A DNA stretch of 64,000 bases, taken from Clostridia bacterium (lineage in GTDB: Bacteria > Bacillota > Clostridia > TANB77 > UBA1234). The stretch lies in the NCBI GenBank assembly GCA_017469545.1, contig JAFUGE010000008.1, positions 127,268 to 191,267 on the forward strand. The letters run 5' to 3'. The notes below the pieces were generated by a model. That model ran no database searches. It was not told where the DNA came from and was given only the letters and a program-made list of their open reading frames with translations. The first letter of the stretch is position 1; each line of letters opens with the position of its first letter. The translations under genes were made by a program, and so were the position numbers. This document shows positions 1,273 to 54,264 of the stretch, one piece after another.

Positions 1273-1349
1273 TGTAGGGGCGGCGTATCACGCCGCCCGT
1301 GGGGAGCCTGATGCGCGCCCGAGGGCAGCGTAATACGCTGCCCCTACAG
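1273..1349. repeat. REP-like palindromic element, inverted doublet (GTAGGGGCGGCGTATCACGCCGCCCG ... GGGCAGCGTAATACGCTGCCCCTACAG)
   Basis: Two copies of the GC-rich palindrome family in opposite orientation separated by a GC-rich spacer, lying in the gatC-gatA intergenic region. Confidence 0.85.
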
Positions 1350-1386
1350 TGTGGTATAATAGTAAATGGAAGGGCTGATTAGGATA

Positions 1387-2820
1387 ATGAATAATATAAT
1401 TGAGCTTACTGCGAGTGAGATTCGCGAGTTGTATGATAAAAAGGAAGCGACTGTGCCAGAGGTGACTAAGGCTTTTTTGGCGCATATTAAGGAAAAAGAT
1501 AGTGAGATTAACGCGTATATTACGGTTTGTGAGGAAGAGGCGCTAAAACAGGCGGAAGAAGTGCAAAAGCTTATGGACAATGGCGAGAAGTTGGGGCCTA
1601 TGGCTGGTATTCCAATCGCTGTGAAGGATAATATTTGCACAAAGGATATTAAAACAACTTGTGCTTCGAAAATGCTTGAGAATTTTGTTTCGCCTTATGA
1701 TGCAACAGTTGTTAAAAAGCTTAAGGACGAGCATATGATTATTCTTGGAAAAGTGAATATGGACGAGTTTGCGATGGGTGGTTCTACGGAGAACTCTGCG
1801 TTTTTCAAAACGAAAAATCCAAGGAATTTAAGTAAAGTACCTGGTGGTTCTTCTGGTGGAAGTGCAGCATCGATTGCGGCGGATATGGCGCCAATCGCAC
1901 TAGGAAGTGATACGGGAGGCTCGATTCGTCAGCCTGCTAGTTATTGCGGCATTGTGGGAATGAAGCCTACGTACGGGTTAGTTTCGAGATATGGTTTGGT
2001 TGCATTTGCTTCGTCGCTAGACCAGGTGGGGCCTATGAGTAAGACAGTGGCAGATAATGCTAATTTGCTAAACGTGATTGCTGGTAATGACGAGATGGAT
2101 ACAACGTCGGCGAAGGTAGAGAAGAAAGATTATACGCAAGCGCTAGTAAATGATGTAAAAGGCCTAAGAATTGGTGTGCCAAAGGAGTATTTTGGTGAGG
2201 GATTAGCGATAGAGGTAAAAGAGGCATTAGAAAAAGCAATAGAAAAATATAGGAGTTTGGGGGCAGTGGTAGAGGAGTTTTCGCTTCCTACTACGAAGTA
2301 TGCTTTGCCGACTTATTACATTATTGCCTGTGCAGAGGCTAGCTCAAACTTAGGACGTTTTGACGGAATTAGATATGGATATAGGACAGAAAATTATTCT
2401 TCATTAAAGGATATTTATCGTAATAGCCGTTCGGAGGGATTTGGCAAAGAAGTGAAGAGAAGAATTATTCTTGGAACGTATGTGTTGTCGGCAGGCTATT
2501 ATGATGCGTATTACAAGAAAGCACAGAAAGTAAGGACCTTGATTAAGCAAGGATTTGAAGAAGCATTTGAGAAGTATGATGTGATTTTAACGCCTACGGC
2601 GCCAACGACTGCATTTGACTTGGGTAGCAAGATTGAAGACCCATTGGAAATGTATTTGATGGATTTATACACTGTGCCGATTAATATTGCTGGCGTGCCA
2701 GCCATTTCGATTCCTTGCGGAACAGATAAAGAGGGAATGCCAATTGGAATGCAGCTAATCGCGAAACATTTTAATGAAGAGATGTTATATAGGTTTGCCT
2801 ACACATTCGAACAGAATTAA
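1387..2820 (+). CDS. gatA: Glu-tRNA(Gln) amidotransferase subunit A (amidase family)
   Basis: Amidase signature GGSSGGSAA and KDNI motif; the ORF-track start 1366 lies inside the REP, so the ATG at 1387 ([16 protein letters not shown]) is preferred. Confidence 0.85.
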
Positions 2821-2854
2821 AATATATTATAAAATAAATTAAGGAGACATATCA

Positions 2855-4285
2855 ATGGAATATGAAGTAATCATTGGACTTGAGGTTCACGCAGAGCTTT
2901 CAACGAAAACGAAAATATATTGTGGTTGTACCAATGAATATGGTAGCGACCCGAATACGCATTGTTGCCCGGTTTGTACGGGAATGCCAGGGGCTCTTCC
3001 AGTGCTAAATGAGAAAGTAGTGGAGTATGCTGTACGTGCTGGACTAGCGATGGATTGCGATATTACGCGCGAAAGTAAACAAGATAGAAAAAATTATTTC
3101 TATCCAGATACGCCAAGGGCTTACCAGATTTCGCAATTTGATTTGCCATTATGCGTAGGTGGAAAAGTGGATGTCAATGTAGAAGGCGAAAACAAGACGA
3201 TTGGCATTACGAGAATTCATATTGAGGACGACGCTGGAAAGCTAGTGCACGACGCATATACGGGCGGAACATTGGTAGATTTGAACCGTGCAGGCGTCCC
3301 ATTAATTGAGATTGTATCAGAGCCAGATATGAGAAGCGCGGCAGATGCTGTGGCATATGTAGAAAAATTAAAGGGAATCTTAGAATATATTGGTGTTTCC
3401 GATTGTAAGATGCAGGAGGGCTCTCTTCGTGCGGATGTGAATTTATCACTTCGCCCTGTGGGCCAAAAAGAGTTTGGGACAAGAACGGAAACAAAGAATT
3501 TGAACTCGTTTAGATCGATTGCGAGAAGTATTGAATTTGAAATTGAGAGACAAAAAGCGGTGCTAGAAGCCGGTGGAGTGGTTTATCAGGAGACAAGAAG
3601 ATGGGACGACGAGAAGGGCGAGGGCTTTTCTATGAGAACCAAGGAAAACGCTAACGATTATCGTTATTTCCCAGAGCCTGATTTGTTGCCAATTAATTTG
3701 TCGGAAGAGTATATTGAAAACATTAAAAAATCTTTGCCGGAGTTGCCAGAAAGCAGAAAAGCTAGATATATGAGTGAGCTAAACTTGCCGGAATATGATG
3801 CCGGAATCATTATCTCGTCTAAGGCGTTATCAGATTTCTTTGAGGAAGCGGGAAAAGTATGTGGCAATTACAAGGCCGTGAGCAACTGGATTATGAGCGA
3901 TATTATCAGGGCTTCGAGAGAATACGAATTCGAGTACGACAATATGCCATATACCGCAGAGCAATTTGGTCATTTAATTCAGCTAATTGATAGTGGCAAA
4001 ATCAGTGGTTCCATTGCGAAAACCGTCTTTGAAGAAATGATAAAGACGGGCAATGAACCAGAAAAAATTGTGGAAGAGAAAGGCTTAGCACAAGTTTCTG
4101 ACGAGGGCGCTATCAAAGAAGTTGTGGATAGAGTTGTGGCCGCAAATCCACAATCCATTATCGACTATAAGGCGGGAAAAGACAGAGCCCTAGGCTTTTT
4201 GGTTGGCCAATGTATGAAAGAAATGAAGGGCAAAGGCAATCCACAAATATTAAATAAATTAATTTTGGAGATTTTAAATAAATAA
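2855..4285 (+). CDS. gatB: Asp-tRNA(Asn)/Glu-tRNA(Gln) amidotransferase subunit B
   Basis: 476 aa, MEYEVIIGLEVHAELSTKTKIYC... is a canonical GatB N-terminus; RBS AAGGAG upstream; follows gatA. Confidence 0.9.
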   Translation: MEYEVIIGLEVHAELSTKTKIYCGCTNEYGSDPNTHCCPVCTGMPGALPVLNEKVVEYAVRAGLAMDCDITRESKQDRKNYFYPDTPRAYQISQFDLPLCVGGKVDVNVEGENKTIGITRIHIEDDAGKLVHDAYTGGTLVDLNRAGVPLIEIVSEPDMRSAADAVAYVEKLKGILEYIGVSDCKMQEGSLRADVNLSLRPVGQKEFGTRTETKNLNSFRSIARSIEFEIERQKAVLEAGGVVYQETRRWDDEKGEGFSMRTKENANDYRYFPEPDLLPINLSEEYIENIKKSLPELPESRKARYMSELNLPEYDAGIIISSKALSDFFEEAGKVCGNYKAVSNWIMSDIIRASREYEFEYDNMPYTAEQFGHLIQLIDSGKISGSIAKTVFEEMIKTGNEPEKIVEEKGLAQVSDEGAIKEVVDRVVAANPQSIIDYKAGKDRALGFLVGQCMKEMKGKGNPQILNKLILEILNK

Positions 4286-4294
4286 AAATTTTTG

Positions 4295-4322
4295 TTGCAA
4301 AATAAAAAATATGCGGTATAAT
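4295..4322 (+). promoter_or_regulatory. putative promoter of the tRNA-Thr transcript (TTGCAA-16-TATAAT)
   Basis: TTGCAA at 4295-4300 and TATAAT at 4317-4322, about 24 nt before the tRNA. Confidence 0.4.
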
Positions 4323-4345
4323 ATTATTTGTACCGCATTTATTAT

Positions 4346-53098: not shown

Positions 53099-53110
53099 GG
53101 AGCGTGAGTT

Positions 53111-53380
53111 ATGAAATTTATCAACATTGGTTTTGGTAATATCGTATCTTCGCATCGTTTACTTGCAATCGTTAGCCCAGAGTCGGCGCCAATTAAGAGA
53201 ATTATTCAAGATGCGAGAGACTCTAGCAAATTAGTGGATGCAACGTACGGAAGAAGAACAAGGGCTGTGATCTTGATGGACAGCGGGCATATTATTTTGT
53301 CGGCGGTGCAGCCAGAAACAGTAGCAAATCGTTTAGATAAAGACAGTGACGATAATGATGTAGACGAAAATATTGATTAA
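53111..53380 (+). CDS. remA: extracellular matrix regulator RemA family protein (DUF370)
   Basis: [71 protein letters not shown] is a near-canonical RemA. Confidence 0.85.
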
Positions 53381-53393
53381 AGGAGGAATAGGA

Positions 53394-53582
53394 ATGATTA
53401 TCAATCCAACATTACCATCTTTACTAAAGAAAGTACCAAGTAAATATTCACTTGTTATTGGAACAGCGAAAAGGGCAAGACAAATTTCGCAAGGTAGCCC
53501 AAAGTTAACAAACAAGAAAGTGGAGTCTGATGTCACGACTGCTGTGATTGAGATTGACGAGGGAAAAGTAGTATTACAATAG
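53394..53582 (+). CDS. rpoZ: DNA-directed RNA polymerase subunit omega
   Basis: MIINPTLPSLLKKVPSKYSLVIGTAKRARQI; ATG at 53394 is 7 nt after AGGAGG (the track start 53373 overlaps remA). Confidence 0.8.
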   Translation: MIINPTLPSLLKKVPSKYSLVIGTAKRARQISQGSPKLTNKKVESDVTTAVIEIDEGKVVLQ

Positions 53583-53688
53583 AAGTGTATATTGTAGGGG
53601 CTGGCGTCCTCGACAACCCGGACGACAAGAAAATAATATGGGGAGGTATTTTGATAATGCCTCTCTTATTTAATATGGGGGGAATTTT

Positions 53689-54252
53689 ATGAAAAAACAT
53701 ATGATTTCTATTACTGGTGATTTGGCTAGCGGAAAAACGACTGTGACGAATATGCTTGCCAACGAATTAGGATATGCGATTTATAAAAATGGAGAATACT
53801 TTAGAAAACTAGCGGCAGAGCACAATATGAGTGTAACAGAATTTAACAAATATGTAGAATCACATCCGGAAATTGACAGGCAAATTGAGCTAAGTGCGAC
53901 GCAGTATGCAGCAGAACACGATAACTTTATTATCGATGCAAGACTTGGCTGGTATTCTGTGCCAGAGTCGTTTAAAATCTATTTGAAAGTGGACATTGAC
54001 GAATCTGCCAGAAGAGCTTTTGGAGACCCTGACAGAAAGAAAACAGAGAATTTTGCGACAGTAGAAGAATATAAAGAAGATTTGAAGAAAAGATATGAGA
54101 TGGAGAATAACAGATATTTTAACTTGTATGGCATTCATAAAAATGATATGAACAATTATGATTTTGTGCTTGATACCACGAACATTACGCCGGAACAAGT
54201 AAAAACAAAAATTTTAGAAGCCTACAAAGAATGGCTTGTAGGGGCAGCGTAA
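53689..54252 (+). CDS. cytidylate-kinase-like family P-loop protein
   Basis: ISITGDLASGKTTV Walker A; size and layout of the Cytidylate_kin2 / (d)CMP-kinase-like family; the last 5 codons and the stop lie inside the downstream REP. Confidence 0.55.
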   Translation: MKKHMISITGDLASGKTTVTNMLANELGYAIYKNGEYFRKLAAEHNMSVTEFNKYVESHPEIDRQIELSATQYAAEHDNFIIDARLGWYSVPESFKIYLKVDIDESARRAFGDPDRKKTENFATVEEYKEDLKKRYEMENNRYFNLYGIHKNDMNNYDFVLDTTNITPEQVKTKILEAYKEWLVGAA

Positions 54253-54264
54253 TACGCTGCCCGC
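54238..54264. repeat. REP-like palindromic element overlapping the 3' end of the upstream CDS
   Basis: TGTAGGGGCAGCGTAATACGCTGCCCG; the upstream ORF's TAA stop is the loop TAA of the palindrome. Confidence 0.85.

Follow-up and report, generated by a model that had tools for sequence, protein, structure and literature searches.

The 64,000-nucleotide stretch of an uncultured Clostridia bacterium analysed here, which is referred to as the window (GenBank assembly GCA_017469545.1, contig JAFUGE010000008.1, positions 127,268 to 191,267), carries a dense family of GTAG-tagged 27-nt hairpins of the repetitive extragenic palindromic (REP) type. The element is of a known kind and its host, a low-GC member of the Clostridia, is an unusual one. 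The family is a genuine, sharply defined one of the REP and bacterial interspersed mosaic element (BIME) type, found in an unexpected host and recently expanded in a single uncultured Clostridia lineage. Its members are probably non-autonomous mobile elements of recent spread, which would have been mobilized by a REP-associated tyrosine transposase (RAYT) and whose hairpins would modulate the mRNAs into which they are transcribed.

The abundance of the repeat was compared with that in 100 dinucleotide-preserving shuffles of the window. None of the shuffles contains the strict palindrome GGGCAGCG-N3-9-CGCTGCCC, of which the window has 14 instances, while the tag with the left arm, GTAGGGGCAGCG, is present 26 times against 1.1 expected when up to two mismatches are allowed. 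The covariance model R1, built from 21 oriented and aligned window copies and used to search the window without filters, gave 22 matches of 38-52 bits on 21 hairpins; the hairpin at 34730-34758, which bears GTAG at one foot and CTAC at the opposite one, scores on both strands. Four degenerate copies score below the rest, namely those at 41806 (21.8 bits), 53594 (18.9 bits), 24591 (16.8 bits), and 47655 (8.6 bits). The total for the window is 25 copies (21 near-perfect and 4 degenerate) at 20 intergenic loci, with a chance expectation of 0-1. The original prediction, made from the letters of the window, had recognized a real repeat family, and its count of about 28 copies at 22 or more loci was only slightly high. 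It had also listed several stem variants, all of which were found again (GGGCGGCG; GAGCAGC at 31670; GGATTGCG at 40217; GGGTACG at 47655).

The window is identical to positions 111,179-175,178 of a 265-kb scaffold in the ENA metagenome assembly ERZ28654170 ("XIEF21-1_SAMN15829995"), from which the flanking loci L026 and L027 add 8.6 kb and 9.6 kb, respectively, so that 82 kb of the contig could be read. To judge by its study label, the assembly presumably stems from a ruminant gut. The 8.6 kb upstream contain 4-5 copies and the 9.6 kb downstream contain 2, which brings the number in 82 kb to 31-32 (approximately 0.38 per kb), all of them intergenic or overlapping gene ends. About 40% of the usable intergenic spacers are occupied; an estimate of several hundred for a whole genome would be no more than extrapolated.

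The repeating unit is T-GTAG-GGGCAGCGT-ANY-ACGCTGCCC-G, which amounts to 27 nt with a 9-bp stem and a 3-nt loop of the form A-N-Y. Its limits were read from the per-column information in 40 oriented copies taken from the window, its flanks, and other contigs. Information jumps at the T preceding GTAG and drops to background past the G following the stem, and because it is confined to these 27 nt the repeat is not the end of a longer insertion sequence (IS) or MITE (miniature inverted-repeat transposable element). The length of about 27 bp given originally is confirmed by this, and the possibility raised along with it, that the repeats are parts of a longer IS or MITE, finds no support in conservation that ends at 27 nt. 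The four positions of the tag are conserved in 100, 100, 100, and 97% of the copies. GTAG itself is unpaired and abuts the foot of the short, perfect, GC-rich hairpin; the tag and the A that opens the loop keep a fixed relation to each other, which gives the element a definite polarity. In the stem, 98.4% of the cells are paired, compared with 24-51% when the partner columns are slid, and three stem pairs change on both sides. An A-T pair is replaced by G-C in the GGGCGGCGT subtype (G-type, as opposed to the A-type GGGCAGCGT), G-C pairs are changed to A-T in the copy at 31670, and several compensatory changes are found in that at 40217. With 68% GC, the repeat stands out from a host of approximately 37%.

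As comparison with relatives makes plain, the copies are insertions, not conserved hairpins, in a family whose expansion in this one lineage is recent. For five relatives the syntenic loci, together about 76 kb, were fetched by means of a search for HrcA homologues; HrcA identity to the host is 90% for L024, 87% for L021, 83% for L025 (GCA_947624765.1), 78% for L022, and 73% for L023. No match to R1 at E ≤ 1 and no half-site was found in these loci, compared with 40 half-sites in the window, so that the comparison of distribution in relatives proposed originally, carried out here on the syntenic loci, leaves all five of them without any copy. Two empty sites have exact boundaries. Between grpE and dnaK, L024 reads GCAAATTAA|GAAAGGAATGATT, and at the bar the window has an insert of approximately 75 nt which starts with TTGTAG and holds a head-to-head doublet. 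In the hrcA leader, L024 reads GTGCTAATTACATAAGG, and the window has an insert of approximately 87 nt with a tail-to-tail doublet. The flanking DNA of L024 is 80-90% identical to that of the window at the nucleotide level and nevertheless devoid of copies, which places the spread after a split at the species level.

Insertion has also altered protein-coding sequence. In the window, uvrB ends in ...WEKLL*, with CTG-TAG derived from the element, while its counterpart in L022 ends in ...LENLK*. The gene for a 2-hydroxyacid dehydrogenase ends in ...NLSM* instead of the ...NLK* of L021, and a cytidylate-kinase-like gene ends in ...EWL|VGAA* instead of ...AWL|SE* in L021, its last four residues and stop codon being supplied by the repeat. 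In total, three copies rewrite the last codons or the stop codon of a gene. From the sites compared it is evident that any tolerant spacer serves as a landing site, be it after a stop codon or in place of one, before a ribosome-binding site, or in a 5′ leader.

Every copy in the window is extragenic or overlaps the last codons of a gene. The window has 12 single forward copies. In eight of them the start falls at -15 to +7 nt relative to the stop codon of the preceding gene; two others lie 18 and 23 nt past a stop, and those at 20250 and 53594 have no adjacent upstream stop. For the ten copies that follow stops the next start codon is 12-43 nt downstream, except at 15367, where the distance is 381 nt. 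This closeness to stops is probably due to the very short ancestral spacers (16-60 nt). The stretch between stop codon and ribosome-binding site would be the only tolerated point of insertion, which offers the simplest account of the pattern. A placement 0-10 nt after stop codons, as predicted originally, is true of the eight single forward copies but not of doublets and reverse copies, and the idea that the repeats sit between operons does not hold, since many are operon-internal or located in 5′ leaders. Doublets occupy the operon-internal junctions gatC|gatA, grpE|dnaK, and dnaK|dnaJ. Five consecutive junctions are filled in the run that starts with the 2-hydroxyacid dehydrogenase gene and continues with pyrH, frr, uppS/cdsA, and rseP, as is the one between the cytidylate-kinase-like gene and secA. 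Copies in 5′ leaders comprise a doublet upstream of uvrB, a doublet in the hrcA leader, and a single copy ahead of a MatE-like gene.

Among the single copies, that at 11514..11538 (+; R1 49.8 bits) lies 6 nt past the stop codon of a radical-SAM gene and 42 nt before a DUF2344 gene, that at 13666..13690 (+; 46.6 bits) 18 nt past the stop of a MiaB-like gene, and that at 15367..15391 (+; 47.9 bits) 7 nt past the stop of a PRK-family gene. A G-type copy in a divergent intergenic region (+; 20250..20305, with the REP itself at 20250-20274; 46.6 bits) is extended by two additional tandem copies of the 3′ arm (ACGCYGCCCGATGY); it adjoins a frameshifted transposase-like gene of the PD-(D/E)XK type (PF12784) at 20378-21247. 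The uvrB gene receives its last codon and stop codon, CTG-TAG, from the copy at 26634..26658 (+; 49.3 bits). At 31670..31694 (+; 38.7 bits) a variant with a GTAT tag and the stem GAGCAGCGT is followed by ATTTTTCTT, the only clear terminator-like tail. Upstream of pyrH, the 2-hydroxyacid dehydrogenase gene has its stop codon within the copy at 38833..38857 (+; 47 bits). The pyrH/frr gap contains a copy at 39606..39630 (+; 50.3 bits) that is missing from L021, and the frr/uppS gap, where the spacer of L021 measures 14 nt, contains the variant GGATTGCGT/ACGCAACC with compensatory changes at 40217..40241 (+; 39.4 bits). Degenerate copies occur in the cdsA/rseP gap (41806..41831, +; 21.8 bits) and, still tagged with GTAG, between rpoZ and the cytidylate-kinase-like gene (53594..53620, +; 18.9 bits). 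The 3′ end of the latter gene (VGAA*) is overlapped by the copy at 54238..54262 (+; 49.4 bits), 25 nt before secA. On the reverse strand, the copy at 43149..43173 (-; 49.7 bits) is found in the leader of the MatE-like gene, just past a promoter-like site at 43112-43140, and that at 34285..34309 (-; 48.5 bits) lies to the left of a cassette of two tiny Cys-rich open reading frames (ORFs). The double-foot copy GTAG-hairpin-CTAC, 34730..34758 on both strands (46.2 bits on + and 45.7 bits on -), is 13 nt away from a tRNA gene. The cassette, encoded on the minus strand at 34310-34620 and flanked by these two copies, consists of paralogous hydrophobic ORFs of 42 and 40 amino acids with GCGC/CCC motifs around a hydrophobic core; neither has an NCBIfam match.

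The five doublets have the coordinates originally given for them, the left units of those at 24591-24664 and 47654-47708 being degenerate. Three are arranged head-to-head. In the gatC/gatA gap, a G-type left unit (GGGCGGCGT; 1274..1298, +; 48.6 bits) faces an A-type right unit (GGGCAGCGT; 1323..1347, -; 46.5 bits). The grpE/dnaK gap combines a degenerate left unit (GTAGAGGGTACGT...; 47655..47680, +; 8.6 bits) with an A-type right unit (47682..47706, -; 45 bits), the corresponding sites being empty in L024, L021, and L025, and the dnaK/dnaJ gap a G-type left unit (49599..49623, +; 47.5 bits) with an A-type right unit (49660..49684, -; 49.8 bits). Two doublets are tail-to-tail. Upstream of uvrB, a degenerate G-type unit (24591..24617, -; 16.8 bits) precedes an A-type unit (24639..24663, +; 52 bits) located 12 nt before the uvrB start codon. 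In the hrcA leader, an A-type left unit (45996..46020, -; 49.1 bits), whose site is empty in L024, precedes a G-type right unit with one stem mismatch (46043..46067, +; 44.7 bits). Upstream of hrcA are two CIRCE operators, TTAGCA-N15-TGCTAA, at 45910-45936 and 45963-45989; the doublet is situated after the second of them and before the hrcA ribosome-binding site. A REP doublet so close to CIRCE could affect heat-shock control.

Four further doublets were found in the flank L026 and on other contigs (L007, L010, and L016 among the loci examined). In all nine, an A-type unit is joined to a G-type unit that is either intact or degenerate; at a ratio of A-type to G-type of approximately 3 : 1 this would be expected by chance with a probability of approximately 2e-4 by our own calculation, and a chance origin of nine heterotypic pairs out of nine is unlikely. 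The spacers within doublets measure between 1 and about 50 nt and show no sequence relationship. Five doublets in the window stand against 14 singles and the double-foot copy. As RNA, the doublets are predicted to fold into one long hairpin each, with -57.6 kcal/mol for that at 1274, -42.1 for 24591, -41.1 for 45996, -58.6 for the dnaK|dnaJ doublet, and -32.2 for the degenerate grpE|dnaK pair, while values of about -30 kcal/mol are predicted for the doublets as DNA. For the single unit, the predicted energies are -17.9 kcal/mol as RNA and -11.9 kcal/mol as DNA.

A T-tract, defined as at least five T within 8 nt past the stem, follows only two of the 25 hairpins, clearly at 31670 and marginally at 41806. 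In a terminator scan of the region 36-55 kb, none of the 13 copies was flagged, whereas the genuine terminator after tsf was. The copies are not classical, Rho-independent terminators, contrary to the role first proposed for them. Ordinary terminator-like hairpins do exist in the window at 8342-8362, 34243-34265, and 36481-36502, two of the three being followed by a clear T-tract. Two of the three share the stem GGTCGCT/AGCGACC, with a 5′ foot that resembles ATAG or GTAT; these hairpins are possibly decayed or co-opted relatives of a REP variant, GGGTCGCGT, located at position 11134 of L027.

GC skew is positive throughout the window, from which it follows that the plus strand is the leading strand; it also carries nearly all genes. 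Single copies on the contig (window, L026, and L027) are oriented forward, that is, with the 5′-GTAG-hairpin strand on the G-rich, leading, coding plus strand, in 17 cases and reverse in 2 (two-sided binomial p ~7e-4). Given the position of the GTAG strand on the leading and coding strand, the active strand would be exposed on the lagging-strand template, on which Y1 transposases of the IS200/IS605 type act (PMC3333891). The 5′ flank of 21 aligned window copies is CT in nine, TT in seven, AT in three, and another dinucleotide in two. Among the 40 oriented copies, T precedes GTAG in 88% and G follows the stem in 80%, often as GCA, which gives CCCGCA. RAYT cleavage takes place at the dinucleotides C|T and C|A (PMC8266576); the CT and CA flanks are compatible with these, short motifs of this kind proving nothing alone.

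Outside this scaffold, the same element is present at unrelated loci on 13 short, low-GC contigs of the GenBank metagenome JAEEGL01/JAEEGF01, so that at least one other, non-identical organism shares the family. On JAEEGL01 contigs (L006, L007, L008, L012, L017, L018, and L020) a second tagged palindrome, GGCGCAC-N3-GTGCGCC, was encountered ten times; its copies often adjoin those of the first family, and none is present in the window. Among 185,579 GTDB species genomes, which do not include the host genome, GTAGGGGCRGCGTNNNACGCYGCCC was found in two, with one copy each. Both are high-GC metagenome-assembled genomes (MAGs; Binatia and Oleiharenicola) without a RAYT gene next to the match, and the two matches are probably due to chance. 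Neither BLAST searches of two doublets against plasmids and phages nor a scan of viral contigs for the repeat gave a match, and an Rfam search of the window returned five tRNAs only, with no match at the repeats.

In the most probable scenario, each 27-nt unit would form a hairpin in single-stranded DNA that is recognized by a RAYT (TnpA-REP), an enzyme of the HUH/Y1 type encoded elsewhere in the genome. The 5′ GTAG would serve as a guide for cuts at a flanking C|T or C|A. Copying of the unit by the RAYT would take single-stranded DNA as its target, in the main the template of the lagging strand at the replication fork. Once inserted, copies would be transcribed within polycistronic mRNAs, in which single units are predicted to form hairpins of -18 kcal/mol and doublets hairpins of -41 to -59 kcal/mol (-32 kcal/mol for the degenerate one). 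Since a U-tract is absent, these would most likely act as barriers to 3′-5′ exonucleases or as modulators of processing or translational coupling and not as terminators, and as such would shift the relative expression of neighbouring genes.

The link to a RAYT rests on architecture, that is, the GTAG guide, the short perfect hairpin, one double-foot copy, and the CT/CA flanks. Several observations weigh against it. A RAYT or other HUH/Y1 gene was found neither in the 82 kb of window and flanks nor on the 13 repeat-bearing metagenome contigs, the search having covered HuH...Y(x)3[NQ] patterns over six-frame ORFs, Pfam matches of window ORFs, and Pfam annotation of the flanks. For the REP elements mobilized by RAYTs that had been predicted originally, this means that the GTAG-tagged architecture is recovered and the enzyme is not. 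The loop positions 2 and 3 are highly variable although the stems are almost invariant in the 40 copies, which is not predicted by simple recent copy-paste from one master. The orientation bias is inseparable from the direction of transcription, because nearly all genes are co-oriented with replication here, and it is weaker on the 13 contigs of the other metagenome, with 7 copies co-oriented, 4 anti-oriented, and 1 ambiguous. Finally, the published surveys consulted report no REP-associated RAYT in Clostridia. GTAG repeats have been described in Proteobacteria, Cyanobacteria, Chloroflexi, and the PVC group (Di Nocera et al. 2013, PMC3733652), and Firmicutes are unmentioned in the text and supplements of that survey, reports elsewhere being possible. 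The Firmicute range of the REP-linked Y1 subclasses is not given by Quentin et al. (PMC6006769), and the only RAYTs noted in Clostridia by Bertels et al. (PMC5581495) belong to Group 1, which lacks typical REPs. With surveys that leave out Firmicutes and five relatives that have no copies, REP families do look unusual in Clostridia, as had been suggested.

A protein with HTH_23/HTH_28 domains encoded at 7626-8330 was considered as the tail of a subclass 2.1 Y1 protein and rejected, as it is without the HuH core. GTAGG-like matches inside dnaJ (50494) and at 21583 were set aside as chance matches in coding sequence. A CRISPR-like array was likewise dismissed, the copies being dispersed and their spacing irregular, and so was a DNA uptake sequence, since REPs account better for an asymmetric GTAG tag and for polymorphic insertion. 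No DNA uptake sequence is known in this group.

If a RAYT is not the responsible enzyme, the copies might be small MITEs moved by another single-strand nuclease, such as an ordinary IS200/IS605 TnpA or a different hairpin-specific enzyme. The missing RAYT gene would fit this, as would the fact that IS200/IS605 subclass 1.1 is common in Clostridia, where the REP-associated subclasses are not listed (PMC6006769). However, a hairpin with GTAG directly at its foot, pairing of unlike units in inverse orientation, and a double-foot copy are hallmarks of RAYT-REP systems (PMC6006769, PMC3733652), while MITEs derived from IS200/IS605 (PATE) consist of a conserved body framed by directly oriented left-end and right-end hairpins, and a body is not seen here; this origin is regarded as unlikely. 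Another idea is that the copies are relics, spread by a RAYT that was subsequently lost, and that they are now immobile and retained by selection on the RNA hairpin. There is precedent for such a loss in E. coli, where tnpA-REP is missing from about a third of the strains (present in 74/110; PMC3333891) and its deletion has also been noted elsewhere (PMC3733652), and the stems are clearly constrained while the loops vary, no RAYT having been found within 82 kb. Yet the stems are near-identical in 40 copies although the intergenic DNA around them has diverged by 10-20% from that of the nearest relative, which bespeaks very recent spread, and where constraint is absent decay is seen, as in the degenerate copies at 41806, 47655, 53594, and 24591. 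Relics are, for these reasons, quite an unlikely explanation.

An explanation by ordinary regulatory hairpins (terminators, attenuators, or an operator) that evolved in place or by gene conversion and do not move would be highly improbable. It would be in keeping with the intergenic location, mostly just past stop codons, with the stable stems, and with the T-tract in one copy in addition to one or two just outside the window. It is at odds with the empty orthologous spacers in five relatives and the exact boundaries of two empty sites, with the presence of copies in leaders and in either orientation, 23 of 25 having no T-tract and none being called a terminator, and with the conservation of an asymmetric GTAG tag and of the loop A, neither of which is needed for a symmetric operator or a terminator. 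Mobile REP elements with a RAYT as probable agent are, accordingly, the preferred reading. A more far-reaching version of it, which we put forward with considerable doubt, is that this is the first system of the REP/BIME-RAYT type in Bacillota, seen soon after a cross-phylum invasion, with approximately 40% of the spacers and every essential-operon junction filled. The filling may then have occurred within the divergence time of sister species (approximately 80-90% nucleotide identity), and in a bolder variant the spread may have proceeded without a canonical RAYT, through a different single-strand nuclease.

With the GTAG-tagged REP superfamily (Di Nocera et al. 2013), the repeats share the defining features of a 20-40 bp stem-loop and of GTAG in more than 90% of the members. 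The closest known elements are the short-hairpin REPs of gamma-Proteobacteria (Stenotrophomonas SMAG, Pseudomonas, Xanthomonas, and Marinomonas; RAYT Group 3 or TnpA-Y1 subclass 2.5), in which GTAG directly adjoins a GC-rich stem of 6-9 perfectly paired bp that closes a loop of 2-4 nt (PMC3733652, PMC6006769, PMC8266576). Like these, the elements of the window occur as singles and as head-to-head or tail-to-tail dimers, are extragenic and mostly downstream of ORFs, and often have CT or CA flanks, which would be compatible with C|T and C|A cleavage. They differ in their low-GC, spore-forming Clostridia host, in the stem sequence, in the RAYT that was not found, and in being confined to one lineage with the loci of sister species free of copies. 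The inverted pairs resemble E. coli BIMEs (y, z1, and z2 REPs; RAYT Group 2), which pair y and z REP units (PMC3333891), in that they are always heterotypic and have variable linkers. Unlike the present units, those of E. coli are recognized through an essential bulge in a longer, imperfect stem, and most copies are part of BIMEs (84/584 are single), while singles predominate here.

The doublets share with the REPINs of Pseudomonas fluorescens SBW25 the folding of two inverted REPs and the short spacer between them into a single long hairpin. The REPIN, as described by Bertels and Rainey in 2011, is reportedly a replicating unit of conserved spacing that outnumbers singlets; in the window the spacing is not conserved and singlets are in the majority. 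The original equation of doublets with REPINs is therefore supported by the long-hairpin folding, but not by the excess of singles, the varying spacers, and the heterotypic nature of every pair, and the doublets are closer to E. coli BIMEs than to REPINs. The copy at 34730-34758 is like the double-foot REPs that belong to TnpA-Y1 subclass 2.4 (RAYT Group 4), a subclass known from Cyanobacteria, Bacteroidetes, and other phyla and, of all REP-linked classes, the one spread over the most phyla (PMC6006769). The REPs of that subclass are described as long, however, and here only 1 of 25 copies is double-footed. High-copy, intergenic small repeats are known from low-GC Gram-positive Firmicutes, such as the pneumococcal BOX, RUP, and SPRITE elements and the repeats of Enterococcus and Staphylococcus. 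In contrast to the present family, these are of approximately 100-200 bp, richer in AT, modular or bounded by terminal inverted repeats, and without a GTAG-tagged 25-nt hairpin.

Almost all work on REP/REPIN-RAYT systems has dealt with Proteobacteria and Cyanobacteria, whose families are old and of obscure origin. Sister species free of REPs, together with exact empty sites, would allow a view of operon structure, gene ends, and heat-shock regulation before and after insertion, and the system would permit replication and transcription to be tested as the source of the orientation bias. It also makes a case for asking how REP elements cross phyla. On the practical side, such hairpins affect the calling of gene 3′ ends in MAGs, three genes of the window ending inside a repeat.

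The gene content of the window is that of a spore-forming, Clostridia-type Firmicute and includes gatCAB, spoIIAA-spoIIAB-sigF, yabQ, divIC, uvrB, rpsB-tsf, pyrH-frr-uppS-cdsA-rseP, hrcA-grpE-dnaK-dnaJ, and secA. A low-GC island follows secA at 57.0-64.3 kb (L027 3700-11000), with 26-29% GC and no copy of the repeat, a circumstance that had been taken as an internal clock for its acquisition. This clock is a weak one. The core stretch 1,350-11,513 is equally free of copies despite having about ten spacers, and the island genes mostly abut or overlap, leaving approximately 6 usable spacers, for which zero copies at an occupancy of approximately 40% has a probability of approximately 0.05 by our own calculation. 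In addition, a variant copy with the GGGTCGCGT stem is located at the right edge of the island, just past the window (window-equivalent position 64,471; L027 11134). The copy-free island is compatible with late acquisition but does not date it. Its genes (NT5C-like, radical SAM, Amdase-like, dNK-like kinase, PfkB, MazG-like, and GNAT) look like a nucleotide or nucleoside modification cluster, and the DNA after secA differs in relatives, with ASCH in L021 and an integrase in L023.

Genes for a MatE/MurJ-like flippase and for an ATP-grasp protein lie at 43202-45889 in the gap between rseP and hrcA; they are missing from L021, in which rseP is directly followed by the hrcA promoter. At 16885-19829, an agr-like quorum-sensing locus of 28-31% GC encodes AgrB, a GHKL histidine kinase, and a LytTR response regulator. 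Downstream of the window, at approximately 15075 of L027 (window-equivalent ~68,400), a (CA)11 microsatellite, a possible phase-variation tract, is found upstream of a gene for a leucine-rich-repeat protein.

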